Source: a virus. From it: DNA of 64,000 nucleotides. Shown piece by piece: positions 6,493 to 52,522 of this stretch. A program made the translations under genes and the position numbers. Position 1 is the first letter of the stretch, and each line of letters starts with the position of its first letter. Where the stretch lies: positions 24,297 to 88,296 of the IMG/VR virus record IMGVR_UViG_3300037245_003526, one strand, 5' to 3'. The notes under the pieces are model-generated. The model was not told the DNA's origin. It was given only the letters and a program-made list of their open reading frames with translations, and ran no database searches.

Positions 6493-9400
6493 CTACCTTT
6501 CTACACCTATGGCTTTTAAATAAGCATTTAATAATCTTACAGACTCTGGAATTATAGATTGTTCTTTATCATCTTTCATAAAATCAGAATCTATCTTTGT
6601 CCTTATAAACTCATTTTTCAAATCAATACAATCACTCTTAGTAGTTAGAAACTCAAACAAATTTGCAGAAGCATCATGACCTGTTAAACACGCCATTTCC
6701 ATTTCTCCGCTTCTTTGACCTCCACCATGTTTTCTTCCTGCTAAAGGTTGTAATGTTTTTCTTGCATATGATCCTATTCCTCTAGCTGATAATCTTGTTT
6801 CAGAAATATGAACCATTTTGAAAAAGTACATATAACCTACAGCTATTCTATTCTTAATAATTTCTTTTGCTATAGGTTCGTACACTTCTCTTTTGAATTC
6901 AGTATTTGTATATTCAAGTGCTTTTCTGGTAACATCTAAGTCTACTGATTCAAATGGTGGTTGAATTAAAACAATACTATCAATAAACTTCTCAGTAATT
7001 TCTCCTGGAAGCTGTTGATTAAATTGTTCATAATACCATCCACCATCGGTTCTGTCAATAATTTTGATATAATTAAGTAAGTATAATTTTAACATTTTTT
7101 GTATTTGAGCATCATCTAATCCTTCAACTCTTTTAATTTTTCTATCAAGAATTAATTTCATATATTTTCTTAAATCAGAAAGTGACATAGCTAAATGTAA
7201 TTCATAAAGCTGTCCAATATTCATTCTGCTGATGATACCCAGAGGGTTTATACATATATCAACATGACGACCATCAGGTAATTGTGGCATTTTTTCATGA
7301 GGAACAATTGTTGAAATTACTCCCTTATTTCCATGTCTGTTTCCAACTTTATCACCAACCTGAATAGGTCTGAAAAATATTGCGAATAACTCTACGAAAA
7401 TTCCATTAATTTTTTCATTCTTAATTTTGAATTTTCCTATGTTTGCATGTGTGTCTAATTCATTATCTTTGATAAACTTTATTGCTTCTTTTTTAGGAAG
7501 GTGTTCTGATATTACCCTTCGTAAATCAGTCTCTTTCTCTTGCTGATCTGTAATTTTTTTCTCTACCCATTCTTTATATTCAGGAACATCTTCATTCCAT
7601 TCATTAGCAAATATATTACACTCTGTGATATACAAATTTTTTCTTGCATATAAATTCTTTTCCTGTTTGAAAATATCAAGAAACTCTTGCTGATTAGAAG
7701 GTATAGTTTTTATAATGGCATATGTATCATCCTTTTTAATTCTATCCTCTCTAGTAGGTAGTGGTTTAAAAACATTTTTATCCAAACTTAATAAGAGTTT
7801 ATGAGGTGGAATTGTAAATGACAAATCCATATAATGTACTGATGTAAGTACATTATCATCTCTTAGTCTTTCAGATATTACTATACCATCCTCATAGTTA
7901 TAACCGTACCACTCCATTACAGCAGTAAGTAAATTTTTTCCAATATTAATCTTATTGTCAGTACAATAATTACTCTCTGCTATTATCTGACCTTTACTTA
8001 CTTTGTCACCAAATTTGACATAAATTTTTAAGACATCAAGATTTGAAATATATATCTTTCTATAAGATATATTAAAAATATCTACTTCTTCATTATCATA
8101 AGCAAGAATTAGATATTTTTCATCTAAATAAACTACTTCACCATCCTCCTTTGCAACTTTAACAAACTGTGTTTTATCAGTATATAATCCTTCGCAACCA
8201 GATTGAATCATTGGTACATCAAAATTTTGTAACATGATTGCTTGTCTCATTTGTGATGATGCCATTTGAAGTCTGGTTTGATCATCGTGCTCTAAAAAAG
8301 GAACCATTGAAACTGGAATTGAAATTGGTTGCTTTTCAAGATATTCATTTGTAAAACGTAAATTTTCATCTAACGGAACATTTGGAATTAAGTTTTGTAA
8401 CACTCCACAATTTTCCCTATCAGGAGTATCCACCGGACAAATTCTACCAAACATTGTATCATTAATATCTCGTAAATGCTCAGGTACATTTTGTTTATTA
8501 AAACCTCCAGGACCAACTAAACTCGTTCTACTTAACTTTGTGAGTTCTTCTATTGGATTTATGGAAAAGTCAAATTGAATTATATCTGAAACATTACATT
8601 CTGAAAGAATTTGTGTAGAATTTACATTAAACTTTGGTTGTCTGGCAGTTCTATTAGTAATACAGAAATCGAAGATTATTTTACTTACCTTTGATAATAT
8701 CATATATTCAAAACAACGTATTCTCTTGTTCTGCATGTCTGTATCATCAAAACCTCCAGATTCCATTGTATAGATTAATTCATCAAGAACAGAATCAGTA
8801 TGAAAAAACCTTGAAGTCATAACATCACACTTCATAATAAGGTCTAATGCAAAAACTAAATCTTCACCCTTACCTTTGGCATTATATTTTGAATAATGTC
8901 TTCCTAACTCTTTAATAATATCATCTTGTGAAGTTCTCTTATTTTCATCATAAAAATCTAAAATATCTTTTAAGAAAGCACCATACATTCCATCATTACT
9001 AAAACTATCAGAATTCAAAGAAGATAGTTTAAATTTATTATTCATTTCCTCTACACCAAAATAAGCAAACATTACTAAATGTAAAGGAACCTTTCTTCCT
9101 AAAATACTAATATAAGTATATGGTGAATCTTTTCTATCTTCAAAAACCATTATTTGAGTAACGTTGGTTCTAAGTTTTATACTCTTTCCTCTTGTAACAA
9201 CTGGAATATCAAAAAACTGAAACTGAGGAATTTTTTTCCTGCCATTTATAATTATATAATTATTATCAATAAGTTTTGGAATTTGTATTGATAAATTTAT
9301 TAAAGACGTCCCTTTCTGAAGTCTAATTGATAATGTTTTTTTCAATGTTCTGCTTATATCACCTGTAGAAAATCTTGGTTCCTTAAATTCACATTCCACA

Positions 9401-9552
9401 ACTTCAAAACCAATATCAGCCACAGGTGCTATAATCACTTTAATATCTTCTAATAAAGAACTATATTCATTAGCTCTTATATCAAAAATATTCTTCTCTG
9501 CAAGTTTATAAACTGGATTAGCTATATTCAAAAGTACTCCTCCTTTCAACAA
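6493..9552 (-). CDS. Multisubunit RNA polymerase beta-subunit homolog (set 1).
   Basis: It carries GDKVGNRHGNKGVIS (the beta C-terminal catalytic-region signature) and MASSQMRQA (an NMQRQA-like motif). 1019 aa. Confidence 0.8.
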   Translation of the reverse strand: MLKGGVLLNIANPVYKLAEKNIFDIRANEYSSLLEDIKVIIAPVADIGFEVVECEFKEPRFSTGDISRTLKKTLSIRLQKGTSLINLSIQIPKLIDNNYIIINGRKKIPQFQFFDIPVVTRGKSIKLRTNVTQIMVFEDRKDSPYTYISILGRKVPLHLVMFAYFGVEEMNNKFKLSSLNSDSFSNDGMYGAFLKDILDFYDENKRTSQDDIIKELGRHYSKYNAKGKGEDLVFALDLIMKCDVMTSRFFHTDSVLDELIYTMESGGFDDTDMQNKRIRCFEYMILSKVSKIIFDFCITNRTARQPKFNVNSTQILSECNVSDIIQFDFSINPIEELTKLSRTSLVGPGGFNKQNVPEHLRDINDTMFGRICPVDTPDRENCGVLQNLIPNVPLDENLRFTNEYLEKQPISIPVSMVPFLEHDDQTRLQMASSQMRQAIMLQNFDVPMIQSGCEGLYTDKTQFVKVAKEDGEVVYLDEKYLILAYDNEEVDIFNISYRKIYISNLDVLKIYVKFGDKVSKGQIIAESNYCTDNKINIGKNLLTAVMEWYGYNYEDGIVISERLRDDNVLTSVHYMDLSFTIPPHKLLLSLDKNVFKPLPTREDRIKKDDTYAIIKTIPSNQQEFLDIFKQEKNLYARKNLYITECNIFANEWNEDVPEYKEWVEKKITDQQEKETDLRRVISEHLPKKEAIKFIKDNELDTHANIGKFKIKNEKINGIFVELFAIFFRPIQVGDKVGNRHGNKGVISTIVPHEKMPQLPDGRHVDICINPLGIISRMNIGQLYELHLAMSLSDLRKYMKLILDRKIKRVEGLDDAQIQKMLKLYLLNYIKIIDRTDGGWYYEQFNQQLPGEITEKFIDSIVLIQPPFESVDLDVTRKALEYTNTEFKREVYEPIAKEIIKNRIAVGYMYFFKMVHISETRLSARGIGSYARKTLQPLAGRKHGGGQRSGEMEMACLTGHDASANLFEFLTTKSDCIDLKNEFIRTKIDSDFMKDDKEQSIIPESVRLLNAYLKAIGVER

Positions 9553-9932
9553 TCATGACCCCTTGAGTGTATAAGAAAATTCATCTCACTGTATTCTCTT
9601 GCTATTTTTCTCCTAATATTTTGCTCTATATTTTTTCTAACGCGTTCATAAAAATACTTTTCAGCATCGTATCCAAAAATAATATCACCTTCTTTAGTAA
9701 CCATATGAATTTTAGCAATAAGAATTTTTACATTAATTTTTTGCATAAGTGTTTGTATCAACGTAGCTGAAATATCAGGAGATAGAGCAGCAGAAAAAGA
9801 TATTATTAAAACTTCTGGTTCTAAAGATAATACCGCAATCTCAGAAACTATAGATTGATATATACCATTTTCTATAATCTGTATTTTAGTAGAACAATGT
9901 TCCTTAATTATTTTTTTAATTTTTTCAATCAT
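9546..9932 (-). CDS. Small hypothetical protein between RNAP beta-prime and beta.
   Basis: The ORF-track start at 10112 overlaps beta-prime by 170 nt. An internal Met (MIEKIKK) preceded by AGGGGAGATTTT at about 9932 is a more plausible start. Confidence 0.35.
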   Translation of the reverse strand: MIEKIKKIIKEHCSTKIQIIENGIYQSIVSEIAVLSLEPEVLIISFSAALSPDISATLIQTLMQKINVKILIAKIHMVTKEGDIIFGYDAEKYFYERVRKNIEQNIRRKIAREYSEMNFLIHSRGHDC

Positions 9933-9942
9933 AAAATCTCCC

Positions 9943-12672
9943 CTAAACTCGCTCACCACATAATATTTTATCCATAATCCCTTTATAAAGTCCTGGTTGT
10001 AATATCCCTTTAATAATATGTTTTTTAGGATTTGAGAAAGCAAGACCCATAAGCCAGCTTTCATATGAGGGGACGGTTTGAACGGAATGAAACTGAGGAA
10101 CCAGTTTTTCACGATTTTTAAGAAGACGCCATTTATAAATTCCTACCCACATTAATTGAGAAACTATACACTCAAAGTGAACATGGTTAATAGTACGAGA
10201 AGTATTATAAGTTGTATAAAGATCATCAACTAATTTTGGTATGTCAACATTTTTACCAAACTTATGTAGTAATTTAGATGCCATTGATAAATCACTAACA
10301 ATATCCTGTTGTTTCAACTCATCTACTTCTTCACCTTCTCTTATATTTGCAACTCCACTAGTATGAAATGTTCTTAAAACTAATTGAGTATTACATTCAC
10401 CCATTGATTGAGCAGCAATAATTCCAACAAACTTTGTTTTAAGATCCTCATGTAATTTTCCATAACAAGTATGACATAATTTTTCATTTTTACAATATAT
10501 GGGACTTCTAACATTTATTGTTTTTCCAATAAAGTCCATATAATTATCTTTTGTAATAAGTACTAACTCATCATCTTCAGACATCCATTTATTTATAAGT
10601 TGTTTAGCTTTCTTATCATCACGTATAAATACTTTTAATAAATCCGTTGTACCACAATCTTCAATATCATAACTCAGTAATAAATTTGCTGCTGTAAAAA
10701 TCAATTTTCTTGATAAATAACCAGAAGCTCCAGTATTAAGAGCAACATCAAGAAGACCTTTTCTACTACCATAAGTGGAATTAAAGAAACCTTTTGGGGT
10801 CAAACCACTTATAAAACTATTTTTAATTGGTTCAGGAATTATTTGACCATTAAAATTTGATACAAAACCCCTTGATAAAACTATCTGTTTAGCTTGATCC
10901 CAACTACCTCTAGCTCCAGATTCAATCATATATGAGTATTTAAATCCACTTCTTAAAATATCCATAAGGTCTTTATTCTCAGTTGAGATTTTGAAAACTT
11001 GTTCTCTTATGGACCCAGACGAGTAAATATCATCTCTGACAGTATCAATACCTTCGATATGACAATCATCGAGAGATAGAGTTGGACCGAATAGGGTTGA
11101 GTATTTGAATCCTACGAACTTGATTTTGTCCAACACCTCTGCTGTAGTAGCTAAATTATACTTTCGATTAATATCATTTAATATTCTAATCAATCCTTTT
11201 GAATTAGTAGGTTCAATAATAAGTGGATAATCTTCTGGAAAACATTCATTGAATATTTTAATATCCTCTTGAATAGTTTCCCCTTTATATTCAACTTTTC
11301 TACTTAGTTTTGGAAATTTATTATTAGTAAGTGCATATATACCAAGAACCATATCCTGACTAGGTGTTGTAGTTAAACTGCCATTAGATGGGTTCTTTAA
11401 ATTCTGAGTAATTAACATTTTTTCAATTGCTTCTTGTTTAGTTTCTTCGCTAATAGGAACATATATGGCCATCTGATCTCCATCAAAATCAGCATTAAAT
11501 GGTGGGCAAGATAATGGATGAATTCTAATAACATTATCTAAAGATATTTTAATATAGTATGCTAACATACTAAGTTTATGGAGAGATGGTTGTCTGTTTA
11601 ATATACAAACTTCTCCACTACATATTTCTTCACATAAGGAAAATAAAACTGATGAGTTTGAAGCTATACACTCATCAATAAAATCAATAGATTGATTTAG
11701 CAATTTAAACTGTCCTGTATCTATTAGTTTCTTTGCTACTTCAATCTTAAAGATTTCTAAAAATATAATATAAGGAATTGAACATTGATCAATGTTTAAT
11801 GTTGGATCTGGTACTATGACTGCTCTACCAGAAAAATCTATTCTTTTACCAAGTATGTTTCCCCTGATAAGACCTTCTTTTTTAGAAAGTTTTTCAAGAA
11901 TATAAGCATATAATTCATTTACATCTTTTTGAAGTTGTCTGAAATGATTATAGAATAAGGTATTATCTCTTCTGACATCAATCAGCGATTCTTCAATAAC
12001 TTCTTTCTTTGTAAGAACCTGCATGTAATACTTATTAATCTTATCTGCATATTGTTCACTTCTTAAGGATCCTTTAGTAGCAGGTCTTAAATCAGCAGGT
12101 AATACAATAATACGATCTATTATTAATTCATCAATATTATCATATACAATCTGCCATGGTGAATCTTCCTCCTCGTCAATTGCTTTCTCTGCTAACTTAA
12201 ATACAAGCTCATGTATAGCTTCTAACCCATACCATGCTTCTCGTCCTTCTTCAATTTCATCTGAATTAGTAACTATTAGATCATTATTATCCTCATGTTC
12301 ATCATCCAAAACAAGGACAGATTTTTCATCTCTCATTAGCTTTTTTAAAGCTTCTTTTAATGAGGTACCAGCAAGATCAACTACCAAATCATAAAATACT
12401 GGATTGACCACAGGCACCGGAAGAACTATTTTTGCAAACCTTCTTCTTCGTTCATCACTATTAACAACATCAACACTACATATATTACATGTACCTCCAG
12501 AACCAGATGTTCCATAATATGTACCGCATTGACATGTGTAGTTTTTTAGTGGACCAAATATTTGTTCGCTAAATAGTCCTTCCGGATGAAATTTTTTCTT
12601 ATCCATTACCTTAGTTGTAGTTATTTCAGGAAGGTTTTCTGTAAATTCTGTAAACTTTAGTAGACTCGGCAT
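9943..12672 (-). CDS. Multisubunit RNA polymerase beta-prime-subunit homolog (set 1).
   Basis: It has an N-terminal zinc finger (CQCGTYYG...CNICS), the catalytic NADFDGD, and a trigger-loop region IIAAQSMGECNTQLVLRTFHTSG. 909 aa, ending soon after the trigger loop. Confidence 0.85.
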   Translation of the reverse strand: MPSLLKFTEFTENLPEITTTKVMDKKKFHPEGLFSEQIFGPLKNYTCQCGTYYGTSGSGGTCNICSVDVVNSDERRRRFAKIVLPVPVVNPVFYDLVVDLAGTSLKEALKKLMRDEKSVLVLDDEHEDNNDLIVTNSDEIEEGREAWYGLEAIHELVFKLAEKAIDEEEDSPWQIVYDNIDELIIDRIIVLPADLRPATKGSLRSEQYADKINKYYMQVLTKKEVIEESLIDVRRDNTLFYNHFRQLQKDVNELYAYILEKLSKKEGLIRGNILGKRIDFSGRAVIVPDPTLNIDQCSIPYIIFLEIFKIEVAKKLIDTGQFKLLNQSIDFIDECIASNSSVLFSLCEEICSGEVCILNRQPSLHKLSMLAYYIKISLDNVIRIHPLSCPPFNADFDGDQMAIYVPISEETKQEAIEKMLITQNLKNPSNGSLTTTPSQDMVLGIYALTNNKFPKLSRKVEYKGETIQEDIKIFNECFPEDYPLIIEPTNSKGLIRILNDINRKYNLATTAEVLDKIKFVGFKYSTLFGPTLSLDDCHIEGIDTVRDDIYSSGSIREQVFKISTENKDLMDILRSGFKYSYMIESGARGSWDQAKQIVLSRGFVSNFNGQIIPEPIKNSFISGLTPKGFFNSTYGSRKGLLDVALNTGASGYLSRKLIFTAANLLLSYDIEDCGTTDLLKVFIRDDKKAKQLINKWMSEDDELVLITKDNYMDFIGKTINVRSPIYCKNEKLCHTCYGKLHEDLKTKFVGIIAAQSMGECNTQLVLRTFHTSGVANIREGEEVDELKQQDIVSDLSMASKLLHKFGKNVDIPKLVDDLYTTYNTSRTINHVHFECIVSQLMWVGIYKWRLLKNREKLVPQFHSVQTVPSYESWLMGLAFSNPKKHIIKGILQPGLYKGIMDKILCGERV

Positions 12673-12984
12673 CTATCCCCCTTTATTAAAATTCTTATTC
12701 ATAAACTTTGAAAGTCCTCCGATTAAAAGAAGTAAATGTTTCTTAACCTCTTTAGAAACTACTTCAGGAAGATTTACCAATAGCTCTTCAACAATTTGCT
12801 TAATTTCACTTTTCTCTAGTTCAACTTTTTGTGCTTTGACCTCCTTTTTTATTTGTTCCATCATATTTGGTCTTTTGACAAATACATTCCCTAATTCCCC
12901 TTCTAGTTTTTCTTCTACAATTTCTTTTAAAAGATTTTTTATCAAATCTTTTGTTTCCTCACTTTCCATGTTATCTCCCTTCAT
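12673..12984 (-). CDS. Small K/E-rich helical protein that ends in Gly-Gly.
   Basis: 103 aa with C-terminus ...NFNKGG. It lies immediately downstream of the E1/E2-like cluster. Confidence 0.4.
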   Translation of the reverse strand: MKGDNMESEETKDLIKNLLKEIVEEKLEGELGNVFVKRPNMMEQIKKEVKAQKVELEKSEIKQIVEELLVNLPEVVSKEVKKHLLLLIGGLSKFMNKNFNKGG

Positions 12985-13442
12985 TAAAAATAATTAATTG
13001 GAAGTCTTCCTGCTTCTCCTTCATATCTGATATATTTTTCATCAAAATCCGGCCAAAAATGTGGCGAGTTTAAATTCCAAATCCTTAACATAAACCTTAT
13101 TGCCCATAATTGCTGTTTTAATAATTTCTCTTTCCCACTAATTACCATTCCTTTTAAATCATCTGAAATACAAAAATCCGCCTTTTTACAAAAATATTTA
13201 AAGCTTCCGCTAACTACTTTTCCTTTTGGAATATATGAGTTTGGATGTGCAACATCATATAATGTTATTCCTTCAAATTCATTATCAAATTTATTATTCA
13301 CAAGAATATCATATTTACTTATAATATAATTTTGATGAACCCACTTAATATCATATGTATTTTTTTTCCCTGTATGAAAATCATCAAATCTAATAAGTGC
13401 AGGTTTAATTGTTTCTCTCATTGTTTGTAATATTTCACTCAT
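12984..13442 (-). CDS. Hypothetical protein. It is a weak E2/UBC-like candidate.
   Basis: The ATG at 13440-13442 overlaps the TAA of the upstream E1-like gene as TAATG, a classic coupled-translation arrangement. The track's longer start at 13478 is probably wrong. It has a mid-protein HPN motif followed by a Cys (AHPNSYIPKGKVVSGSFKYFC) at roughly the position seen in UBC folds. Confidence 0.3.
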   Translation of the reverse strand: MSEILQTMRETIKPALIRFDDFHTGKKNTYDIKWVHQNYIISKYDILVNNKFDNEFEGITLYDVAHPNSYIPKGKVVSGSFKYFCKKADFCISDDLKGMVISGKEKLLKQQLWAIRFMLRIWNLNSPHFWPDFDEKYIRYEGEAGRLPINYF

Positions 13443-14329
13443 TATGCACCTCCTGTCTCTGGAATTAATTCTATACATATTCTTTCTTCATTTATTCCTA
13501 TTGTGACTAAATATTCTCTATAAGTAAATACATTATTAGCCATTTCTGATAGAATTCTCATAACATCTTCTGGTGATTGTAATTCATGCTTAGAAATAAT
13601 ATATGAACATAAAGAATCTTCTTTTCTACCAACATAAATAGGTATAGAAGAATCTTTATTTGCTTTTAATATCGCAGGTAAATTTTCAAAATGTCCTGTT
13701 AATTTTTCTTGCCCCTCAAAAGAAATATCATAAATTAAATCCGGTTGATTTTTATATTTTTTAACAGCTATCTGAAATTTATCATCATCATCATCACCCT
13801 TCAAATCTATACTATATTTAATTTCTCTTTCAATAAGTTCCTTAATTTTTCCTGTTCTAACATGTTCATATAACTTAAATGCTGCTCTTCTTATTTCATC
13901 CTTTGAAAAATCACTAGTATAAGTACCCCGTTTTGAAGTACCATATGTTACATATTTATTACAATCAATAACTAACTTATTGAATGAAATATAAAATCTA
14001 ATATCAATATAACCACTCCTATCACAGCTTTCATCTCTACAATCAAAAACCATATCATATGGAATTCTTTTACATGTAGGTTCATCAAATTTTTTATATA
14101 TAGGGTTTACCAATAAATCATCAGTCCTATCTTTTATCATATCACAAAGCGCATATACTTTTTTACGTTTTAAATCTCTAACTCTATAAATAGAGTTTTC
14201 TAAATTTGATTTTTCTACAAAATCATTATCAATAAATGAAAGTTTTTGTAATCCCGGTAAATGAGACATAAACTCAGCGAAGAATCCACCTAACGAACCA
14301 ACACCTATTATTAATACACTTTTAGTCAT
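13442..14329 (-). CDS. ThiF/MoeB/E1-like adenylation-domain protein (E1-like A). Its nucleotide-binding motif is degenerate.
   Basis: VLIIGVGSLGG (GxGxxG), then IDNDFVEKSNLENS where canonical E1s have SNLNRQ, then DMVFDCRDESCDR (DxxDN-like). A GGGAGTG ribosome-binding site precedes it. Confidence 0.6.
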   Translation of the reverse strand: MTKSVLIIGVGSLGGFFAEFMSHLPGLQKLSFIDNDFVEKSNLENSIYRVRDLKRKKVYALCDMIKDRTDDLLVNPIYKKFDEPTCKRIPYDMVFDCRDESCDRSGYIDIRFYISFNKLVIDCNKYVTYGTSKRGTYTSDFSKDEIRRAAFKLYEHVRTGKIKELIEREIKYSIDLKGDDDDDKFQIAVKKYKNQPDLIYDISFEGQEKLTGHFENLPAILKANKDSSIPIYVGRKEDSLCSYIISKHELQSPEDVMRILSEMANNVFTYREYLVTIGINEERICIELIPETGGA

Positions 14330-14411
14330 TCACAATTCACTCCCTTCATATTTTATGATCCCCACTTATAAATAAGCAGGGATCATAAATACTTTTAAAT
14401 TTTAGCAACTA

Positions 14412-14915
14412 TTAACCAACTCTAAATTCATCTATTTCGCGATCGGTTGGGTTTGGTCGATAATAAGATTTCCAAATAAACTGTTTTAAAGCTATTTCCA
14501 TTGGATGTAAATATGGTAAATCATATTGTACATATTTTTTAGAACCATTTGTAATAACCTTAAAATCAATATTCTTGAATTCTCTTAATTTATCTACAAA
14601 ATCACGTTCTTCCTTAATAGTCTTTACTTTTTTTCTTCTTAAATCAAAATAATCATATTCAGTATAATCCTTAATTTTTTTGATTTCCAGGCTTGTGCAT
14701 CGTTTACCTAAAGCATTTCTCGCTCTTTTATATGCTCTTTTTCTTCCTTCTTTCTTATTGAACTGATCATATATAGAGCATATAGAAATACCTCGTGCAA
14801 CTAATAGATTAGATTCTTTTTCTAAAAATAAACACACCGTAACCGAGTTACCAACACATGGAGACTTTTCGTAGTAATAAACATCACGAATATCTGTCAT
14901 GGCTTTGTCAATCAT
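14412..14915 (-). CDS. Hypothetical basic protein inside the Ubl-like operon.
   Basis: 167 aa with a strong GGAAGGAGA ribosome-binding site. No clear motif. It contains Cys and a basic patch. Confidence 0.4.
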   Translation of the reverse strand: MIDKAMTDIRDVYYYEKSPCVGNSVTVCLFLEKESNLLVARGISICSIYDQFNKKEGRKRAYKRARNALGKRCTSLEIKKIKDYTEYDYFDLRRKKVKTIKEERDFVDKLREFKNIDFKVITNGSKKYVQYDLPYLHPMEIALKQFIWKSYYRPNPTDREIDEFRVG

Positions 14916-14977
14916 TTTCTCCTTCCTTTCAGTTGGGGTGAACTGTTATAGTCCACCCCATTTTATAAGTTTAATTT

Positions 14978-15466
14978 CTACAGTCCTACATCAATACCCT
15001 TACGTCCAGATGGTTTCATGAATTCAACATTGTCAGCGTCCTTTAAAATATAAGACGAAGCAACTTCTTTTCCATTAACCAACATCTTTGGAGTAGAAGG
15101 AACATTAAGAACTTCACGAAGAAACTCAGCAACAGCACCAACTTTTTTACCAACAACAGGATATTCACCACTTGAAGCTCCGCAAGAAACCTGTATAGTG
15201 CTTGAGATTCTTCCACTAGAAGAACCTGGTTTCGTCATTACACTCCTTACATTACACTCAACAGCAGTAACTTCACCTGAATTATCAACTTCTCTTGACA
15301 TACTTGCCGTATCGCGTTTTCTTGACTTCTTGGCAGATAACGCTTCAATAATTACTTCTTTCCTCTTTTTAGACATTCCAGGAACATTATGTTTTTTACA
15401 TAAATCTCTCAGATGAGAAACTGTATGTTTTTCCAATGCTTCCACTGTCCATTTAGCTTTACCCAT
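14978..15466 (-). CDS. SAP/Rho-N-like N-terminal domain plus a C-terminal ThiS/MoaD-like beta-grasp. This is the candidate ubiquitin-like protein.
   Basis: The N-terminus TVEALEKHTVSHLRDLCKKHNVPGMSKKRKEVIIEAL fits a SAP bihelical pattern. The C-terminus AVAEFLREVL...KMLVNGKEV...ILKDADNVEFMKPSGRKGIDVGL parallels ThiS/MoaD (TVxELL...VNxxxV...LKDGDEVxxxPPVSGG), but it ends SGRKGIDVGL rather than GG. Confidence 0.45.
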   Translation of the reverse strand: MGKAKWTVEALEKHTVSHLRDLCKKHNVPGMSKKRKEVIIEALSAKKSRKRDTASMSREVDNSGEVTAVECNVRSVMTKPGSSSGRISSTIQVSCGASSGEYPVVGKKVGAVAEFLREVLNVPSTPKMLVNGKEVASSYILKDADNVEFMKPSGRKGIDVGL

Positions 15467-15495
15467 TTTTCTTTTTCCTTTCTTTAAATGTTTTA

Positions 15496-16176
15496 TTAAA
15501 TTACTACTCGTTGTGCGGGTCTTACATTCATCATTTCCATATCAAAGTAAACTTCTGAATTCTTACCCGACCGTACATTACCTACTCCAACTAAGTCATA
15601 AAAATACCAGCACATTATAAGAGCCACAGTTATATTAGCAAATAACACTTGTGGCTCAGATACTGATAGTTCTTCACAACTCATTTGATCCGGAGATCTA
15701 TCTTCCGGGTTGTCTATCTCGGGATGATAGTCAGTAAGAGATGGTGTTATTTTTTTACCATTCTCTCGTATATAAATTTGCACATTTCCGTCAACAAATT
15801 CATTTCCTCCTGAGATTAAAACAACTTTTTCTAATGTAGTACAATAATCAGAAACAATTTTTCTAGTCCTATGATTATCTACACATAAAAATATGACATC
15901 ATCCTCTTCTATAATTCTATTGACATTCCTTGAGGTAACATAGTCTGTACATGTTAAAACTTCTAAATTATCAAATATTGCAATAAGATCTCTTCTCTTA
16001 ATTCTTGCCTTATTACCAAAGTTTGAAAAGGATTGTCTTTCTTTATTCCTTTCCTTGTAACTCTTTCCATCGATCAAAGTAATATTAAATTCACCATCAA
16101 TATAATTAACAAATCTGAAAAGGTTATCGCATAATGCAGAACCAACTCCTCCTAAACCTATAACTTTGATGTTCAT
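15496..16176 (-). CDS. ThiF/MoeB/E1-like adenylating enzyme (E1-like B).
   Basis: VIGLGGVGS (GxGxxG), then LIDGKSYKERNKERQ (a D..E.N..RQ ATP-binding motif), then DDVIFLCVDNHRTRK (DxxDN..R), then VVLISGGNE. Confidence 0.7.
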   Translation of the reverse strand: MNIKVIGLGGVGSALCDNLFRFVNYIDGEFNITLIDGKSYKERNKERQSFSNFGNKARIKRRDLIAIFDNLEVLTCTDYVTSRNVNRIIEEDDVIFLCVDNHRTRKIVSDYCTTLEKVVLISGGNEFVDGNVQIYIRENGKKITPSLTDYHPEIDNPEDRSPDQMSCEELSVSEPQVLFANITVALIMCWYFYDLVGVGNVRSGKNSEVYFDMEMMNVRPAQRVVI

Positions 16177-16191
16177 ATTTACTCCTTTCTA

Positions 16192-17214
16192 CTAAAATAT
16201 ACTAGATTCATCAGGTTCATCAGGTTCTTCTTTAAAACCTAATTTCTCTAATTGGTCTTCATCAAGTTCCTCAAAAATTTCCTGCATAAGAAGCTCTGTT
16301 TTATGCGCTTTATAAGGACACTGTTCACATGGATTCCATTCCTCATTTTTAATTCTGTAACCAGAATCATTTACACTTTCAGGTTTCAGTCTGAATGGAT
16401 TAAAATCATGTACTTTAAGTTTAGTTTCCTCAGGCAAGACTTTTTTAGCTTCTTCTTCATACTTGATTTTATCAACCATCTTTAACCATTTTTTTGGAAA
16501 TTTAATATTTCCGTCTATCACCCCCTTTACTTTATACCCAAGAGATGTCTTAGATGGTCTAACATCCTCTACTTGTTCATATTTTCCCTCCATAAGCGAC
16601 CATTTTTTATAAACTTCTCCAGGAATTTCAAACTCTTCAAGTTTGATTCCATCAATATAATTAGTTGGATCGCAAGTAAATCTTGTTCCATTTGCAACAA
16701 TAGAACAAGAGATTGATATTAAATCATTATTCATATTACCAACTGTAATATGAAGTCCATCAAAATCAACTTCATCTGTATCATCTGTTCCAGAATGAAA
16801 TGCTGACATTCCTGCGTGACTATGTATAGTACCTATCCTTTGATATCCTTTAATCTGTTCATTAAGATAAGCTACAGATCCACTACTAGTTTTCTGTAGA
16901 GGAACCTGAACTTTAAATTTACCAGATTTTTTATTAAAATGTATTACAGTGTTTGCCTCATTACTATTATAATCCTGATATACTTTCTTGAAAAAAGTAA
17001 TAATCTTTCCAAAATCTTCAGCTGAAATTCGTTTGATATTCATTTTTGCTTGAGGTATTATATCATCAGAAAGAAATGAAATCTTATTAATAGGTACTAT
17101 ACTTTCCATGAAACCTACTTTTTTCTTTAAGTAAACTTTATCCTTACAAATAATATATAAAACATCATCTGAAGGCATCTCATTTACACCATCATTTATA
17201 TGTACTTTAAACAT
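16192..17214 (-). CDS. JAB/JAMM (MPN+) family metalloprotease with a C-terminal extension.
   Basis: IHSHAGMSAFHSGTDD matches HxHx7Sx2D, with an upstream Glu. 340 aa, GGGAGGTG ribosome-binding site. Confidence 0.7.
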   Translation of the reverse strand: MFKVHINDGVNEMPSDDVLYIICKDKVYLKKKVGFMESIVPINKISFLSDDIIPQAKMNIKRISAEDFGKIITFFKKVYQDYNSNEANTVIHFNKKSGKFKVQVPLQKTSSGSVAYLNEQIKGYQRIGTIHSHAGMSAFHSGTDDTDEVDFDGLHITVGNMNNDLISISCSIVANGTRFTCDPTNYIDGIKLEEFEIPGEVYKKWSLMEGKYEQVEDVRPSKTSLGYKVKGVIDGNIKFPKKWLKMVDKIKYEEEAKKVLPEETKLKVHDFNPFRLKPESVNDSGYRIKNEEWNPCEQCPYKAHKTELLMQEIFEELDEDQLEKLGFKEEPDEPDESSIF

Positions 17215-45054: not shown

Positions 45055-48000
45055 TTATCTCCAAATCATTAAACTTATAAAGTATGAATTTAATAAATCT
45101 CTTACCGGTGCATGTTTAGGAGGTCTATACTTAGCACCACCTGTTTGAATAATATCAGATAATATTTCATTCTTTGTTACATGATCATCAGATAAAGGAC
45201 CAAAAAATTCTTCTAGTAAAGAAGGACAATTATAAGAAATAAATGAATACGTATCTAATTCACCCATTCTTTGACCACCGTCTTTTCTTTTGCCGGCAGT
45301 AGGTTGAAATGTCTTGGATGTAATAGGTCCAGTACTTCTAACATGAAGTTTTTCAGATCCTATATGTTCAAGTTTAAGCATATACAAATATCCAACTGCT
45401 ACTGGATATTTTGTTGTTGTATTATACTCTGGAAGTCTTAATTTATATCCAGGTTTTAATTTAAGTGCTTTTAAAGTAGCTAAAATTTCTTTATAAGATG
45501 GAGCTTTAAAAGGAGGAATTAATAATGTCATACTCCCGCTAGCTTTTACTTGACTAATAAATTTAGTAAACATAGCAGCAGACATACCTCTAAATTTAGA
45601 TATAAGACCCTTACTAAATTCTTTATTTTTAGTAGTATCAAGTTTAGGTAAGACTTGATTCAATAATGCCACTACTTTTGGTTTATTATTTAATTTTATT
45701 ATTTGTCTTCCTAACTCATGCGAAATTAAACCTGTATATGTTTCATAAAACTGACCAACATTCATTCTTCCTATAATACCTACAGGATTTAAAATAATAT
45801 CTATTCGATCTCCAGTTGGGGAAATAGGCATATTTTCATCTTTTTCAATTAATGAAATAATACCCTTTGCTCCATGTCTATTAGTTAACTTATCACCAAC
45901 CATAACTGGTAGCTCTTGTTCTACTTTAAATCTTATAACAACACCTTTTACATTTTCACCCCTATTAGTAAATTTTTCTTTAGGTTTTAGTTTATATCTT
46001 TTTCTGGTTCTATCAACAAGTGGTTTCAATTCTGGAAATATACTTTCTCTTAAATTAGAAAACACTTCAATATCAACAATTTTCCCACCTGGTGATTTTT
46101 TAATATAGTGTCCTGCTATGATATCAACACCTTCTTCTTCCTCGTCATAACCTATTAATTGCTCGATTTCACCCACTGTTTTTCGTATTAACACTTCACC
46201 TTTTTCAGTTTCAGCACCTAACTCAACCATTTTTATAATTCTATCACCTTTATCAATTTGTACTTCTTCAACTATTCCATGAAGTGATGTAAGGAGTTCT
46301 TTCTTAACAACTGATTCTGAAATAACAATACCATCCTCAAAATTATGACCCTTATAAGGCATAAATGCTACACATAAAGTTCTACCTAAAGCTATAGATC
46401 CAGAAGTAATACATGAACCCTCAGCAATAATTTGTTTATTTTTAACAACCTGACCAACTTTAACTACCGGTTTGAAAACACTTAAAGTATTTTTTCCAGC
46501 TCCTGATCTAAGATGAACTGGTACTATATCAATCTTATTAGTCTTCCCACCTGTGCAAGTAACACTAATAAAATCCTCAGTAATATTTTTTATTTTTCCA
46601 TTACATGGTGATCTTTTAATAAATGCATCAGATAAGACACTAGTTAATATTGATTCATATCCTGTTTGAATAGATGGTGTTTCTGGATTCTTTAGTGGTA
46701 CAGACTGTCTTTGCTGATTACATCCAAACATAACTCTGTTACCATCATTATTTTCTACAAAAGGAATTTGAGCTGCAGTAGTTGAAAGTAAACCAGAATC
46801 TTCTCCTTCCTTAATACCTTTTGGAGTTATTAAACCTCTTGCTGATGTAATATATGCATCAACAGTAAGCTGCTGAACTATTCCTACATTTTCACCTTCT
46901 GGTGTATCTAATGTATCAATATTTCCATACATAGATGTATGGACATTTCTTCCTTCCATTTGAATTGCCGTCTTATCAGGTATTCCTCCAATTGATTTAC
47001 CTACTGGAGATATTCTTGTTTTGGTAGCCATTTCTTCAACTGGATTTGCATATTCCATATCAACAACAATTTCTGAATTTATAAATTCGCTTAATACTTT
47101 TGTTGGAGATAATTCAAAAGTTGCTTTCTTGTTTCCGGATAATACTTGCTCTTTATATTCTGTATATGAAGCTAATATTTGTTTTTGTGCTAGATGTACT
47201 AAAATCTCAGAGTTTCTTATTCTTTGATTTGAGACATCATTTCTTTTTTGTGTAAATCCTTCAACTGCTTTAGACGCCATGTATTTCATTATTAAATCAA
47301 GATTACTTGGTAATTGTTGATTTATAAGAACTTGTTTAGCAACCGGATCAACAATATTTTCTAAGTTTGATTGGATTAAAAATGTAGAATTTATTCTTCC
47401 GCTCATTTTTATTATAAGATCATTAAAATATTCTTTTGTACCAAATTCTTTATCTATTTTAAATGAAGAAATATTAGCATGTATAAAAGATTGACATAAT
47501 TCTTCTTGAAGTTTAGTTTCAGCTCCATTGAAAACTATATATTTATTCGGTTCAATCAAAGATCTAAATTTTTCCTCTTTTGGACGTTCCTCTTCAAACT
47601 TATGGGTTAGATTATATAATTTTAATGTTTCTTTAAAACCAAAACTAAAAGCAAGTAGTATCATTAATGGAAGTTTATAAGAACCAATATAAGCTTCTAA
47701 GTATTCTTCTCTTATAGTTCTCTTACTCCATATATGAAATGTAGAATAACTACTTTCAAATTTTGAGTCAAATTGTTTAGGAAATGAAATAGGATTAAGA
47801 ACTATTTGATTAATTAAACATTTCTTTCTACCATTAACAAGAAATGTTCCATCTTCTGATATCTTAGGTACATCTATTCGAACTACATGTTTTTTATTAT
47901 ACATACCTGTTAATGTTACTTCGACAGTATTTATATCTGATCTACTTAGTTCACCCATATTAGTTGGTTTTTCAATTATTTTAATACTCTTATAAGTTAG

Positions 48001-49143
48001 TGGAACCTCTTTAGTTTTTAGAACCTTAAATGAGTTTGCCATATCCTTTTTAAGATTAGTTTCAAAATCAATTTTTCTCTTCTCAAATAAATGTTCAGGA
48101 GACTTATTATCAACCATTTTTGGAGCATTAGATAATTGTATTACTACATCTCCTGAAGTTGTTTCAGTCTTTTGAGGTTTTAGTAGTTCATCAGCATATT
48201 GTCTATCAACTACTTTTAATGAAAGTAATTTCTTAGCTTTAGGAATAGATTTAGCAGTTCTAGATGCCTTTTCAATATCACCTGAAGTCCTGTATAATAT
48301 TGAAGCAGTTGCAATTTCTCTAGCATCATTGTCATCAACTAAATCATAAGTAACCTTATCCATTTCTTTTTTATTTTTTGTAAAAAAGTCATAGATAGCA
48401 GCAAAAATTTTAGACCTATTAGAAGGACTAACGTCTCCATCAATTCTTCTCATTATAGAGGATGTAGCAAGACTAATTTTCTTATGTTCTTCTTCTTCTG
48501 TATCTATAAGTTTTATATTCTTTAAAAATTGTTTAACCCTTGTAAATTTGAAGTCTTTGTCTTTTATAAGCAGTCTATAATTAGATGAAGATTCATTTAT
48601 AATATTCATAATCAAATGATCATAATTAATTTCTTCCTTCTTTAAATCAAGTAATAAAGGAAATATCTTTCTATCAATTAGACTCTTTGTTTCTTTAGTA
48701 GCATCAACTGAATATAAAAGAACTTTCTGATAATTTGGAGGGAAACTACTTAGAACTTTTAAAAGCATATTTTTAATTAAGAAACCTGCTCTTTGTCTAT
48801 AATTAGTAACCTTGTATGATATGTCTATTGTATTTAAAAAACCGGAAAGGTCATATACTAAATTTTGTCCCTTTGGTACTTTCTGGTTAGAACTTAAAGC
48901 AAGTAAACTATGACTTTTATATAAATTCTTTATATCAGGAGTTAAATAAGAAATTGGAATCTTTGTACGCGGAACTATTACATACCTAACATCTATTCGT
49001 TTCAAATTCAACTTTTCGTAATCATCTATAAAAGATGAATTTTCACTAAAATAGATTAATAAAAAAGGTTCTTTTCTATTTTGAGGAAAACGAATTCCAT
49101 CTACTAGATGTGTATATTGTCTTATTGATTTGAATTGAATCAT
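45055..49143 (-). CDS. Multisubunit RNA polymerase beta-subunit homolog (set 2).
   Basis: GDKLTNRHGAKGIIS, and CNQQRQS-like and other beta-region motifs. 1362 aa. Confidence 0.85.
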   Translation of the reverse strand: MIQFKSIRQYTHLVDGIRFPQNRKEPFLLIYFSENSSFIDDYEKLNLKRIDVRYVIVPRTKIPISYLTPDIKNLYKSHSLLALSSNQKVPKGQNLVYDLSGFLNTIDISYKVTNYRQRAGFLIKNMLLKVLSSFPPNYQKVLLYSVDATKETKSLIDRKIFPLLLDLKKEEINYDHLIMNIINESSSNYRLLIKDKDFKFTRVKQFLKNIKLIDTEEEEHKKISLATSSIMRRIDGDVSPSNRSKIFAAIYDFFTKNKKEMDKVTYDLVDDNDAREIATASILYRTSGDIEKASRTAKSIPKAKKLLSLKVVDRQYADELLKPQKTETTSGDVVIQLSNAPKMVDNKSPEHLFEKRKIDFETNLKKDMANSFKVLKTKEVPLTYKSIKIIEKPTNMGELSRSDINTVEVTLTGMYNKKHVVRIDVPKISEDGTFLVNGRKKCLINQIVLNPISFPKQFDSKFESSYSTFHIWSKRTIREEYLEAYIGSYKLPLMILLAFSFGFKETLKLYNLTHKFEEERPKEEKFRSLIEPNKYIVFNGAETKLQEELCQSFIHANISSFKIDKEFGTKEYFNDLIIKMSGRINSTFLIQSNLENIVDPVAKQVLINQQLPSNLDLIMKYMASKAVEGFTQKRNDVSNQRIRNSEILVHLAQKQILASYTEYKEQVLSGNKKATFELSPTKVLSEFINSEIVVDMEYANPVEEMATKTRISPVGKSIGGIPDKTAIQMEGRNVHTSMYGNIDTLDTPEGENVGIVQQLTVDAYITSARGLITPKGIKEGEDSGLLSTTAAQIPFVENNDGNRVMFGCNQQRQSVPLKNPETPSIQTGYESILTSVLSDAFIKRSPCNGKIKNITEDFISVTCTGGKTNKIDIVPVHLRSGAGKNTLSVFKPVVKVGQVVKNKQIIAEGSCITSGSIALGRTLCVAFMPYKGHNFEDGIVISESVVKKELLTSLHGIVEEVQIDKGDRIIKMVELGAETEKGEVLIRKTVGEIEQLIGYDEEEEGVDIIAGHYIKKSPGGKIVDIEVFSNLRESIFPELKPLVDRTRKRYKLKPKEKFTNRGENVKGVVIRFKVEQELPVMVGDKLTNRHGAKGIISLIEKDENMPISPTGDRIDIILNPVGIIGRMNVGQFYETYTGLISHELGRQIIKLNNKPKVVALLNQVLPKLDTTKNKEFSKGLISKFRGMSAAMFTKFISQVKASGSMTLLIPPFKAPSYKEILATLKALKLKPGYKLRLPEYNTTTKYPVAVGYLYMLKLEHIGSEKLHVRSTGPITSKTFQPTAGKRKDGGQRMGELDTYSFISYNCPSLLEEFFGPLSDDHVTKNEILSDIIQTGGAKYRPPKHAPVRDLLNSYFISLMIWR

Positions 49144-50176: not shown

Positions 50177-52522
50177 TTATACCTCCAATCCTGATAAAGG
50201 ATCGTTATTTATAATATCATTTAACATTTCTCTTTTAATTAATGTGACTGCTCCACCAGTATGGAAGCTACGCATAATTAATTGAGTCCCCCTCTCTCCA
50301 ATTATTTGAGAAGCTAATATTCCAATAAAAGGAGTTCGGTGTCTATTTAATAATTTTCCATAACATGTATGACAAATTTTAGCTGACTTACAAAATACTG
50401 GACTTCTTAAATTAACTATATCTCCAACTTTAACTTTTGATGCTTCAATAGTCATTAATTTTCCATTTTTAATAACATATCTACCAGATAATCTACTTAA
50501 TAAATCTGCAGTAAGTTTAAGATCTAAAGTACGTTTAGTACCACAATCTTTAAGATTTCTATTAATCTCAACTGTATTTAATAAGTAAGCCAATTTTCTC
50601 GACATATATCCTGTATCAGCAGTATTAATAACACGGTCAATAGTTCCTTTACGAGCTCCTTGAGATGCATTGAAATATTCTACATTAGTAAGACCATCTG
50701 CAAATGAACCTGAAATAGGATCAAGAATATTTCCATCAGAGTCTCCAATAATTCCCTTAGCTACAAGAATTTGCATTGGTTGACCCCAACCCTTTGTTGA
50801 TCCAGATTCAACTAAATCACCAAATCCTGTATCTTTTAATTCTTTTTCTACTATTTTTTGAGCTTCAGCAAGTAATTTTTCTGCTTCTTCAGGAGTAGCA
50901 GTTTTTAATTTATCTTTTATTACATATATTTTTTTAGGGAGTTCAAAAGTATCTAAAGTCAAGCTTGGAGCTCCTATAGTTACCCATTTAAATCCTTCCT
51001 CTTTTAATCTATCAATAACCTTCATTGTTACTTCTTGACCTAGTTTATTAAAAATCTTTTCTATCAATTCGCTAACAACTTTTTTAGTAGCTATCTCATT
51101 TACAAATGGTATAACCTTAGGTAAACAACTATTGAATATTGCTCTTCCTGCTGTAGAAGTAACTCCTCTATATCTTACAGGTCTATAAATTTCACCTGTA
51201 TATTTTTGTAGTTCTTCAGTAGTTACCGCAATTGATGGTTTAGAAACTTTTTTATTTTTTGTTAAAATATAAAACCCACCCCACATTTCCTTCTTAAAAT
51301 CAAAAGCAAATTTTCTAGATGAAGTTCCGCTGGTAAGTCTCATCATTTTTTCTCTTGCTTCTGTTTGTGCTTCATCAGTAAGAGGGTGAAATACAGCAAC
51401 TGTGTCACCGTCAAAGTCAGCATTATGAGCCTCGACTTGGACAGTTGACATTAATATAGTATTACCTCTATGTAAAACAGGATTATAACCTAAATAACTT
51501 TGTGTTTGTAAAACAGGATCTCGTTTTAGAACTATTACTCTACCCTTCATTGCAACTTCAGTAGCTTCATAAAATAACTCATATAAAGTCACTGGTATTT
51601 TATCACCTTCTTTAATAGATTTAATAATTTTTTTAACACTATCAACTGATAATTCAAGACCTGTATATTTTTCTACCTCTTCTGCTAGTATATTTTTATC
51701 CACTTTTCCTGAATATAATAATCTATGCATAAGAAATGGTTCGAATAAACCAACTGCCATTCGTAATGGAATACCTGCTTCATTAGTCTTCATTTCTGGA
51801 CCTGGACTAATAACTGCTCTTCCACTAAAGTCTACACGTTTACCAAGCATAAGCTTTCTTACAATACCAGACTTTTTACTTATTTTAGATCTAATAAAAT
51901 TATCATGTTCTAAAATAGCATTTTGTAATGCATAATTTAAAAGATCATAAAGCGGACCAGAACCACTAGAACGAACTTGAGATGCTCTTCTCATAACTGT
52001 AAGATAAACATCATTCAACGGATCTATCATCCAATTACCATCGTCTTGTCGTAATGCTGGTCTTAAGTCAGGAGGAATGACTGGTAACTTATCTAAAAAA
52101 ATTGTATCTCTTTTATTCTCTTTTTTTAGAAAATCTATAAGCTTATCTCTCGTTTCTGTTTCCCCGCGAAATTTAATCTTTGGAAACATTTTTATAAACT
52201 CTTTAATTCCAGTTACTCCACCTCTATCTACCATCACAAGTTTTTTCTCTTCATCTAAAATAAACGATCTTTCAGTTGATAAAAATTTTTCTATTTTCTT
52301 ATCGAGTTGAAGTATTATTCTATAAGCGGCAGGATGAATTATTTTAGCATTTAATTCAATATATGAAAAGATCAATCTTCTTTCTTTAGAACCTTCTGGA
52401 CCGAAAATTCTTTCACTAAAAAGACCATTCTCATGAAATCCTCCTGATCTATCAGTGGATAACATAGATGTAACCGGATTAAGATTCCTAATAAAACCTT
52501 TCAAAGAAATAAGTTTTAGCAT
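50177..52522 (-). CDS. Multisubunit RNA polymerase beta-prime-subunit homolog (set 2).
   Basis: The catalytic NADFDGD, and a trigger-loop region CHTCYGKLLNRHRTPFIGILASQIIGERGTQLIMRSFHTGGA. 781 aa. Confidence 0.85.
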   Translation of the reverse strand: MLKLISLKGFIRNLNPVTSMLSTDRSGGFHENGLFSERIFGPEGSKERRLIFSYIELNAKIIHPAAYRIILQLDKKIEKFLSTERSFILDEEKKLVMVDRGGVTGIKEFIKMFPKIKFRGETETRDKLIDFLKKENKRDTIFLDKLPVIPPDLRPALRQDDGNWMIDPLNDVYLTVMRRASQVRSSGSGPLYDLLNYALQNAILEHDNFIRSKISKKSGIVRKLMLGKRVDFSGRAVISPGPEMKTNEAGIPLRMAVGLFEPFLMHRLLYSGKVDKNILAEEVEKYTGLELSVDSVKKIIKSIKEGDKIPVTLYELFYEATEVAMKGRVIVLKRDPVLQTQSYLGYNPVLHRGNTILMSTVQVEAHNADFDGDTVAVFHPLTDEAQTEAREKMMRLTSGTSSRKFAFDFKKEMWGGFYILTKNKKVSKPSIAVTTEELQKYTGEIYRPVRYRGVTSTAGRAIFNSCLPKVIPFVNEIATKKVVSELIEKIFNKLGQEVTMKVIDRLKEEGFKWVTIGAPSLTLDTFELPKKIYVIKDKLKTATPEEAEKLLAEAQKIVEKELKDTGFGDLVESGSTKGWGQPMQILVAKGIIGDSDGNILDPISGSFADGLTNVEYFNASQGARKGTIDRVINTADTGYMSRKLAYLLNTVEINRNLKDCGTKRTLDLKLTADLLSRLSGRYVIKNGKLMTIEASKVKVGDIVNLRSPVFCKSAKICHTCYGKLLNRHRTPFIGILASQIIGERGTQLIMRSFHTGGAVTLIKREMLNDIINNDPLSGLEV

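Follow-up and report, generated by a model that had tools for sequence, protein, structure and literature searches.

The 64,000-nucleotide stretch analysed here (the window; positions 24,297 to 88,296 of IMG/VR record IMGVR_UViG_3300037245_003526) carries on its minus strand a gene block which is probably a phage-encoded conjugation and deconjugation module for a ubiquitin-like protein (Ubl). The module is of the PRTRC type, named after the ParB-related, ThiF-related cassette of plasmids, integrative and conjugative elements and some prophages. In a clade of uncultured jumbo phages, this block is syntenic and belongs to the conserved core. The initial annotation, made from the letters of the window, had proposed a phage-encoded Ubl-transfer operon with E1, JAB, beta-grasp and E2-like proteins, and this proposal holds. 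All genes of the window lie on the minus strand, the GC content is 27-35%, and no DNA similarity to 50,697 deposited phage records was detected. Since the window contains further hallmark genes, namely a second multisubunit RNA polymerase set, topoisomerase II, a UvsX-like recombinase and a helicase, its source is an uncultured jumbo phage; prophage or plasmid features were not seen in the window.

The assignment is based on the conserved GxKG end of the tag, the kinship of its enzymes to PRTRC proteins, a gene order that is kept together with overlapping stops and starts, and the lack of a partner from a sulfur pathway. The following features carry it:

17207-19792, minus strand: 861-residue protein with an N-terminal E2-like domain (Prok-E2_D / PRTRC protein B type), assigned by orthology
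19007-19615, minus strand: E2-like domain of the 861-residue protein (about residues 60-262)
19226-19228: candidate catalytic Cys189 of the E2 domain, eight residues after Asn181
16192-17214, minus strand: JAB/JAMM metalloprotease, PRTRC protein A type (TIGR03735 PRTRC_A 1.9e-9; Prok-JAB 3e-4)
15496-16176, minus strand: E1-B, ThiF/MoeB-type adenylating enzyme, PRTRC ThiF type (Pfam ThiF 1.6e-17)
14978-15466, minus strand: protein C, the ubiquitin-like tag, 162 residues, with a Rho_N/SAP head and a beta-grasp tail
15305-15445: Rho_N/SAP-type helical head of the tag (residues 8-54)
14996-15208: beta-grasp domain of the tag after a flexible linker (residues 87-157), ending in G154-R-K-G157
14981-14995: five-residue tail IDVGL of the tag after Gly157

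Relatives were collected by an alignment-based scan of IMG/VR, which resulted in at least 112 contigs with an E1-B relative, while an IMG/VR scan with the single E1-B sequence gave no matches. Counts of gene order refer to 88 related loci from independent metagenomes (80 loci were fetched), and motif counts for the single genes refer to unique relatives, i.e. 73 for JAB, 73 for E1-B, 69 for E1-A and 65 for protein F.

The JAMM site of the JAB protein comprises E86 and H131-x-H133-x7-S141-x2-D144, with H131 to D144 at nucleotides 16783-16824. E86, H131, H133, S141 and D144 were invariant in 8 orthologues, and the HxHx7Sx2D motif was present in 72 of the 73 relatives, which confirms the motif given in the initial annotation and shows the MPN+ motif to be complete. 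More than 273 JAB homologues were found; one of them (P0001), identical to the JAB of the window, lies on a metagenomic contig of 244,552 bp, presumably the source of the window. Compared to TIGR03735, the protein reached 37.3 bits over model positions 27-187 of 192 at a curated cut-off of 101.8, and the profile of the phage JAB matched plasmid PRTRC protein A at 1e-15 and 3e-8. Judged by these scores, the phage JAB can be regarded as homologous to PRTRC protein A and not as an equivalog. The C-terminal part of the JAB protein (16192-16330) is highly variable and here forms a short acidic tail with one half zinc-ribbon (NPCxxC) near the C-terminus. JAB relatives of 450-600 residues (within the proteins P0019-P0120) showed several zinc-ribbon-like CxxC pairs, and some of them are annotated as RpoP-like or HypA-like.

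For E1-B, the comparison with PRTRC_ThiF (TIGR03736) resulted in 2.2e-10 and 40.3 bits over model positions 12-225 of 245 (cut-off 144.75), and reciprocal profile matches between E1-B and plasmid PRTRC ThiF were obtained at 8e-12 and 2e-8. Invariant residues are GLGGxG, D36, N44, R47, Q48, K56, D100, R105 and C167; GLGGxG, NxxRQ and VDN were kept in 72 of the 73 relatives, in agreement with the intact GxGxxG and NxxRQ described before. The feature set of an E1 was found as a whole: GxGxxG, the ribose Asp, NxxRQ, the Lys, the Asp that binds Mg and, behind the adenylation core, a Cys. This candidate catalytic residue, Cys167 (MSCEEL, nucleotides 15676-15678), aligns with C187 of MoeB and with SC in the ThiF proteins of plasmid PRTRC cassettes. 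Neither a rhodanese domain nor Zn CxxC pairs are present in E1-B. Altogether, E1-B looks like an active adenylating enzyme.

The 861-residue open reading frame (ORF) belongs to the module and lies outside the region delimited by the initial annotation (12673-17214). Its stop overlaps the start of JAB, and the gene was present in every relative. PF14460 (Prok-E2_D) was matched by 5 of 8 orthologues (best 2.2e-6), including the orthologue of locus L008, which exceeded the gathering score of 25 with 27.9 bits, and TIGR03737 (PRTRC_B) was matched by 4 of the 8. When a profile of the N-terminal domain was aligned by hhalign to proteins of the PRTRC_B type encoded by plasmids and by one Bacillus phage, the probability was 80.5% (E 1.3e-5). 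Asn181 and Cys189 (N-x7-C) were invariant in 35 sequences of the family, a spacing equal to that between Asn and Cys in classical E2s. The N-terminal domain is thereby the best-supported candidate for the E2 of the module. The remaining about 600 residues are conserved, comprise no recognisable family and are a candidate for a substrate-selection region. In this part (17207-19000), repeated 'GD' beta-barrel-like motifs were observed. The only match of the region in the profile search against PDB, domain II of Thermotoga NusG, was non-significant (E 0.037); given the RNA polymerase genes in the neighbourhood the match is curious, and it is unproven.

The structure predicted for the tag together with 104 relatives showed a predicted local distance difference test score (pLDDT) of 85 overall and of 96-98 for the beta-grasp domain. 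Among 104 family members, 51 matched Pfam ThiS and 61 Rho_N, while only one matched FHA. Both the family matches and the model are in line with the SAP-type head and the ThiS/MoaD-like tail claimed for this protein in the initial annotation. As is characteristic of a Ubl, the beta-grasp fold ends in an exposed conserved C-terminal Gly. In an exhaustive search, 380 representatives of the tag family were obtained. From 93 locus copies, 59 stop exactly at GxKG, 18 comprise one extra Cys, and a few comprise 1-5 other residues, as the copy of the window with IDVGL, a tail that would have to be trimmed before Gly157 could be used. Stand-alone versions of 65-75 residues exist as well as head-to-tail arrays of 3-4 repeats, every repeat ending in GxKG. 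Due to the conserved GxKG end, the occasional 1-5 extra residues, the stand-alone forms and the poly-Ubl arrays, the tag family behaves like a protein modifier. The tandem poly-Ubl proteins P0206, P0208, P0264, P0270 and P0309 resemble polyubiquitin in their repeats. One protein of 3308 residues (P0321) showed 19 weak matches to the Ubl domain of the tag, and in 5 of the 88 loci a second Ubl-family gene was observed upstream of the E2 gene.

Downstream of the tag gene, the block continues with the following features:

14412-14915, minus strand: D, basic protein, 167 residues, no family match
13442-14329, minus strand: E1-A, degenerate E1-like protein (ThiF 2.8e-12 over residues 3-112 only)
Parts of E1-A: Rossmann nucleotide-binding half (residues 1 to about 120), middle region, C-terminal region of about 75 residues
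12984-13442, minus strand: F, HPN-Cys protein, 152 residues, with conserved H66-P67-N68 and C91
12673-12984, minus strand: G, small helical protein directly upstream of beta-prime
9943-12672, minus strand: beta-prime of a phage multisubunit RNA polymerase (Pfam RNA_pol_Rpb1/Rpb2 domains in orthologues)
6493-9552, minus strand: beta of a phage multisubunit RNA polymerase (Pfam RNA_pol_Rpb1/Rpb2 domains in orthologues)

All seven minus-strand ORFs from JAB to G are present at the coordinates listed in the initial annotation, and their tight coupling was verified. The gaps amount to 15 nucleotides between JAB and E1-B, 29 between E1-B and C, 62 between C and D and 82 between D and E1-A, while E1-A and F share a TAATG overlap and F and G overlap by 1 nucleotide. 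The ATG of beta-prime follows directly after the stop of G, so that the operon adjoins the RNA polymerase gene as had been stated. The full order of E2-861, JAB, E1-B, Ubl, E1-A, F, G, beta-prime and beta was found in 65 of the 88 loci, with protein identities of 25-60% across these loci. Most of the other loci showed a compatible part of the order, several of them at contig ends, or a small ORF remained undetected. In all loci that extend far enough, the module is followed by RPOC and RPOB. The clustering of these genes is far beyond chance. A scan for promoters and terminators gave nothing informative.

A comparison with the PRTRC models of NCBIfam (TIGR03734-TIGR03742) relates JAB to protein A, the E2_D domain to protein B and E1-B to the PRTRC ThiF. 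The cassettes of plasmids are arranged as ParB-E-C-F-(D)-B-A-ThiF, and the order B-A-ThiF, as on Novosphingobium and Ralstonia plasmids, equals the order E2D-JAB-E1B of the window and the 88-locus set. In addition, the phage tag shares the GxKG end of PRTRC protein C (copies GTKG, GAKG+NHA and GTKG). In contrast to PRTRC, the body of the phage tag is ThiS/MoaD-like and comprises a Rho_N/SAP head, the E2 is fused to an extension of about 600 residues, a degenerate E1-A and the HPN-Cys protein F are added, and the module is located next to RNA polymerase genes in jumbo-phage genomes of the lytic type. The tag aligns with PRTRC protein C only in the last 13 columns at its C-terminus, which include GxKG (hhalign E 0.0026, probability 11%); PRTRC_C (TIGR03738) was not found among the NCBIfam matches listed for the 104 tag-family members, and Prok_Ub gave no match to the tag. 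No NCBIfam match to PRTRC D, E or F was obtained among the proteins of the window, and the profiles of the phage proteins E1-A, F and G gave no match to plasmid PRTRC proteins E or F. Seven loci showed no ParB family of Pfam in their 10-kb flanks, a result that does not include a protein-by-protein scan of the remaining window. With all scores below the curated cut-offs, the module is best described as a derived relative of the PRTRC system and not as a member. The triad of E2_D, JAB and ThiF was also found in the cultured Bacillus jumbo phage vB_BceM_WH1 (gp214-216, L093:4704-7798) and on the Butyrivibrio plasmid pNP144 (L090:4294-8708), where JAB and ThiF are separated by a Rad52-family gene and a 113-residue ORF; the tag profile detected no tag gene near these two triads.

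Of the two E1-like proteins, E1-A is incomplete. It comprises GxGxxG, D34xD36, K57 and DCRD, and it was matched in the profile search against PDB by MoeB, ThiF, MccB, Cap2 and Uba5, only at profile positions 4-120. While GxGxxG was present in all 69 relatives, NxxRQ was found in none of them (0/69), so that E1-A lacks the NxxRQ-based feature set of an E1 and is, judged by its motifs, probably not an adenylating enzyme. The earlier description as E1-like is therefore correct with regard to the ThiF match and GxGxxG, whereas the protein is degenerate. The end of E1-A (...ELIPETG(A/G/S)A) showed G[AGS]A in 76 of 82 copies. In the last five codons, synonymous sites (third positions) are free to vary. 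Selection therefore acts on the end of the protein as such, and an explanation of its conservation as a mere constraint of a ribosome-binding site was rejected. For the C-terminal region of about 75 residues, no match was obtained in PDB and Pfam, and there was no support for a tag homologue or a known domain.

The coupling of protein F to E1-A results from the TAATG overlap. HPN and one Cys were invariant in 50 sequences; among the unique relatives, HPN...Cys was present in 62 of 65 and HPN-x8-C in 48 of 65, and the F of the window comprises a 13-residue insert compared to those aligned orthologues in which HPN and Cys lie closest together. The family of F shows the motif of HPN followed by a Cys about 7-8 residues later. 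Foldseek and profile comparisons found nothing, and F is E2-like by fold only weakly. F is thus a plausible candidate for a minimal UBC-like E2 or an E2 variant. The initial annotation had named F as its E2-like candidate; its HPN...Cys is real, whereas the better E2 is the N-terminal domain of the 861-residue protein. A paralogous relationship between F and the E2_D domain was not supported.

The two remaining proteins were counted to the operon before, G as a small protein with a GG end. The ORF of protein D exists as described, but no gene was present at its position in L003, L006 and L008 (3 of 8 loci examined), while L004, L005 and L007 hold different content there; D is a variable insert and probably not a core part of the module. 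G is syntenic in 70 of the 88 loci and possibly associated with the RNA polymerase. As its C-terminus is not conserved and the GG end occurs only in the window, G was dismissed as a Ubl. Its terminal KGG is encoded by AAAGGGGGA (AAA GGG GGA TAG ATG), which is at the same time the purine-rich ribosome-binding site of beta-prime. Such gene ends doubling as the ribosome-binding site of the next gene were observed for AAAGGGGGA-TAG-ATG before beta-prime (12673-12690) and for AGGAGGTGCA-TAATG before F (13442-13460), and a terminal 'GG' is therefore a misleading Ubl signature in this genome.

That the module conjugates a tag, and to which proteins, is inferred here from established E1/E2/JAB systems. 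Accordingly, JAB would remove IDVGL after Gly157 in this phage, while the tag would be ready-made in most relatives. E1-B would bind ATP, adenylate Gly157 and load the tag on Cys167 as a thioester, from where it would pass to Cys189 in the N-terminal E2 domain of the 861-residue protein. The C-terminal part of about 600 residues could pick the targets and would thus represent a built-in E3-like module, and JAB might also reverse the modification. E1-A and F would most likely, although this is speculative, form an auxiliary pair that partners or regulates E1-B and the E2, acting as a pseudo-heterodimeric E1 or in a second transfer step. In eukaryotic heterodimeric E1s (SAE1/SAE2, NAE1/UBA3), one complete and one degenerate subunit are likewise co-encoded, which is an analogy only. 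The C-terminal region of E1-A has no detectable similarity to a ubiquitin-fold domain. As targets, DNA-bound or transcription proteins of the phage or the host can be speculated on, a suggestion that comes only from the Rho_N/SAP head of the tag and from the fixed upstream location of the module relative to the RNA polymerase genes.

The principal alternative to PRTRC-type conjugation is a sulfur-carrier pathway, in which E1-B would adenylate the ThiS/MoaD-like tag to form a thiocarboxylate for the thio-modification of DNA, tRNA or a cofactor, JAB would trim the carrier as QbsD and Mec+ do, and the E2-like proteins would have other roles. The best sequence and fold matches of the tag are ThiS, MoaD and TtuB, the best curated matches of E1-B are ThiF and MoeB, the Cys of E1-B aligns with the MoeB C187 used in sulfur-transfer E1s, and genes for nucleotide modification (GCHY-1, PTPS and radical SAM) lie nearby. 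The tag fold, the adenylation core of the E1 and the trimming by JAB after a terminal Gly are indeed shared with QbsE/QbsC/QbsD and CysO/MoeZ/Mec+. However, sulfur donor or acceptor enzymes are missing: no rhodanese, cysteine desulfurase, MoaE, ThiG, TtuA or CysM was found in the 20-kb neighbourhoods examined. The initial annotation had regarded ordinary MoeB/ThiF enzymes with a MoaD partner and no E2, or a JAB without the MPN fold, as the outcome that would speak against it. What was found is an E2-family domain with an invariant Cys which is translationally coupled to JAB and E1, a full MPN+ motif, and scores far below the cut-offs of ThiF and MoeB (44.9 bits compared to 275 for ThiF, and 16.6 compared to 49.5 for MoaD). 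Moreover, the tag ends in KG instead of GG, and its family includes poly-Ubl precursor forms. To our knowledge, such forms have not been reported for sulfur carriers. Altogether, a sulfur-carrier role is considered unlikely.

It is also conceivable that the phage proteins mainly interfere with Ubl immunity of the host (Bil, CBASS Cap2/Cap3, Bub), which would fit the fact that the bacterial E1/E2/JAB systems studied experimentally in the literature are all anti-phage, that the Rossmann half of E1-A scores best against Cap2 models (PADLOC 1.9e-10, residues 2-97) and that E1-A is catalytically degenerate. Anti-defence genes are usually accessory and patchily distributed, while the module is core and syntenic, encodes both a conserved tag of its own whose terminal motif matches and an E1 in which no catalytic residue is missing, and descends from the PRTRC lineage found on plasmids and not from those of Bil, CBASS or Bub; counter-defence as its main function therefore appears quite improbable. 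The same comparisons correct the assignment to the Bil and CBASS types made in the initial annotation, as the order B-A-ThiF and the GxKG end point to PRTRC instead. Bil (6D; BilA as Ubl, BilB as E2, BilC as JAB and BilD as E1) unites the same four activities in one operon, and it is established that such a set conjugates the Ubl to protein lysines, which JAB reverses. Bil is, however, a host-encoded anti-phage defence, and its E2 belongs to a different family, Prok-E2_A. Among the Bil profiles of PADLOC, only BilD gave a match, a marginal one to E1-B (0.037), while JAB, the tag, F and the 861-residue protein were matched by none. In type II of the cyclic oligonucleotide-based antiphage signalling system (CBASS; Cap2 as E2-E1 fusion, Cap3 as JAB), the chemistry of E1, E2 and JAB is similar, and the conjugation of a protein's own C-terminal Gly/Ala tail offers a possible analogy for the G(A/G/S)A end of E1-A. 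In contrast to CBASS, the phage has no CD-NTase, separate genes for E1 and E2 and a dedicated beta-grasp tag; an E2-E1 fusion was not found either, and the E1-E2 model of PADLOC matched only the Rossmann half. Bub (6E; BubA as poly-Ubl, BubB as E2-like protein, BubCD as E1-peptidase) resembles the module in the poly-Ubl forms of the tag family, and BubB and BubCD were among the weak structural and sequence matches, while E1 architecture and peptidase differ and no significant sequence relationship exists. Least of all, the block could be a cassette for DNA partitioning or maintenance, as PRTRC is commonly annotated, serving genome segregation without any tagging. PRTRC is named after ParB, a prophage paper uses the term 'partitioning cassette' (PMC13366799), and the tag carries a head of DNA-binding type. 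This explanation is very improbable, considering that no ParB, D, E or F homologue was found in the phage module or the 10-kb flanks of loci, that what the phage has kept is precisely the enzymatic core of a Ubl system, and that RNA polymerases, topoisomerase II, UvsX and a helicase are found in the window in place of prophage or plasmid features.

Several points weigh against the assignment as a PRTRC-type conjugation module. The 861-residue copy of the window, compared alone with Pfam, gave no match and was not significant for Prok-E2_D, and its assignment as E2 is therefore based on its orthologues and on the profile-profile probability of about 80%. In locus L085 (L085:11237-11990), E2, JAB, E1 and Ubl are followed by the RNA polymerase genes without E1-A or F, so that at least one lineage can do without the E1-A/F pair. 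The closeness of the tag to the sulfur carriers ThiS and MoaD makes a thiocarboxylate role possible. Moreover, the roles given for E1-A, F, D and G are guesses, and no biochemical evidence for any PRTRC-type system was found in the literature.

Apart from the module, a second RNA polymerase set was observed on the minus strand at 45055-49143 and 50177-52522 (1362 and 781 residues, PHROG 'RNA polymerase beta subunit' families). With this set, the phage has genes for two RNA polymerases, of which only the pair of 909 and 1019 residues is linked to the Ubl module. A 188-residue ORF at 9546-10112 overlaps the 3' end of beta-prime by 170 nucleotides in another frame. At its position, a 134-residue gene was found in L002 and genes of 61-79 residues in several other loci, and the ORF, its start possibly set wrongly, may encode a small protein associated with RNA polymerase. 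Upstream of the module, a conserved block (20346-27086, also in L002-L008) comprises a WYL_2-domain protein, a radical SAM enzyme (20947-21978, CxxxCxxC) and SbcC-like and SbcD-like nuclease genes. In relatives, GCHY-1 and PTPS (QueD-like) genes flank the region, which hints at a DNA modification of the 7-deazaguanine type. A 64-residue ORF at 20152-20346 was rejected as a Ubl, as its KGG end is absent from the closest orthologue (L002).

Neither a paper on a Ubl conjugation system owned by a phage nor a mechanistic paper on PRTRC was found in the literature. A comparative survey of jumbo phages from 2021 does not mention JAB, ThiF or Ubl, a review from 2026 lists ubiquitin signalling for giant eukaryotic viruses and not for jumbo phages, and the full PRTRC cassette described in 2026 in a Burkholderia prophage was called a 'partitioning cassette' (PMC13366799). 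So far, bacterial E1/E2/JAB/Ubl systems have been shown only as host defences (Bil, CBASS Cap2/Cap3, Bub), while here the toolkit is a core block of the phage. In its most far-reaching form, the finding would mean that these phages own a eukaryote-like cascade with a two-subunit E1, two E2-type proteins, JAB and a DNA/RNA-binding Ubl that marks the transcription machinery or nucleoid proteins, of the host or of the phage, during takeover. We regard this cascade as rather doubtful, and equally doubtful is that within it the C-terminal region of E1-A would recruit an E2 or itself be transferred, one E2 being fused to a built-in module for substrate recognition. If true, it would be the first Ubl conjugation system of a virus of bacteria and would provide a function for the widespread PRTRC cassette. 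The module would offer a tractable entry to this cassette, which is common on plasmids and integrative and conjugative elements, and since the cultured phage vB_BceM_WH1 carries the triad (gp214-216), experiments are feasible. Altogether, the module makes it conceivable that phages modify proteins of the host or of their own after translation, using as the tag a Ubl that binds nucleic acids.

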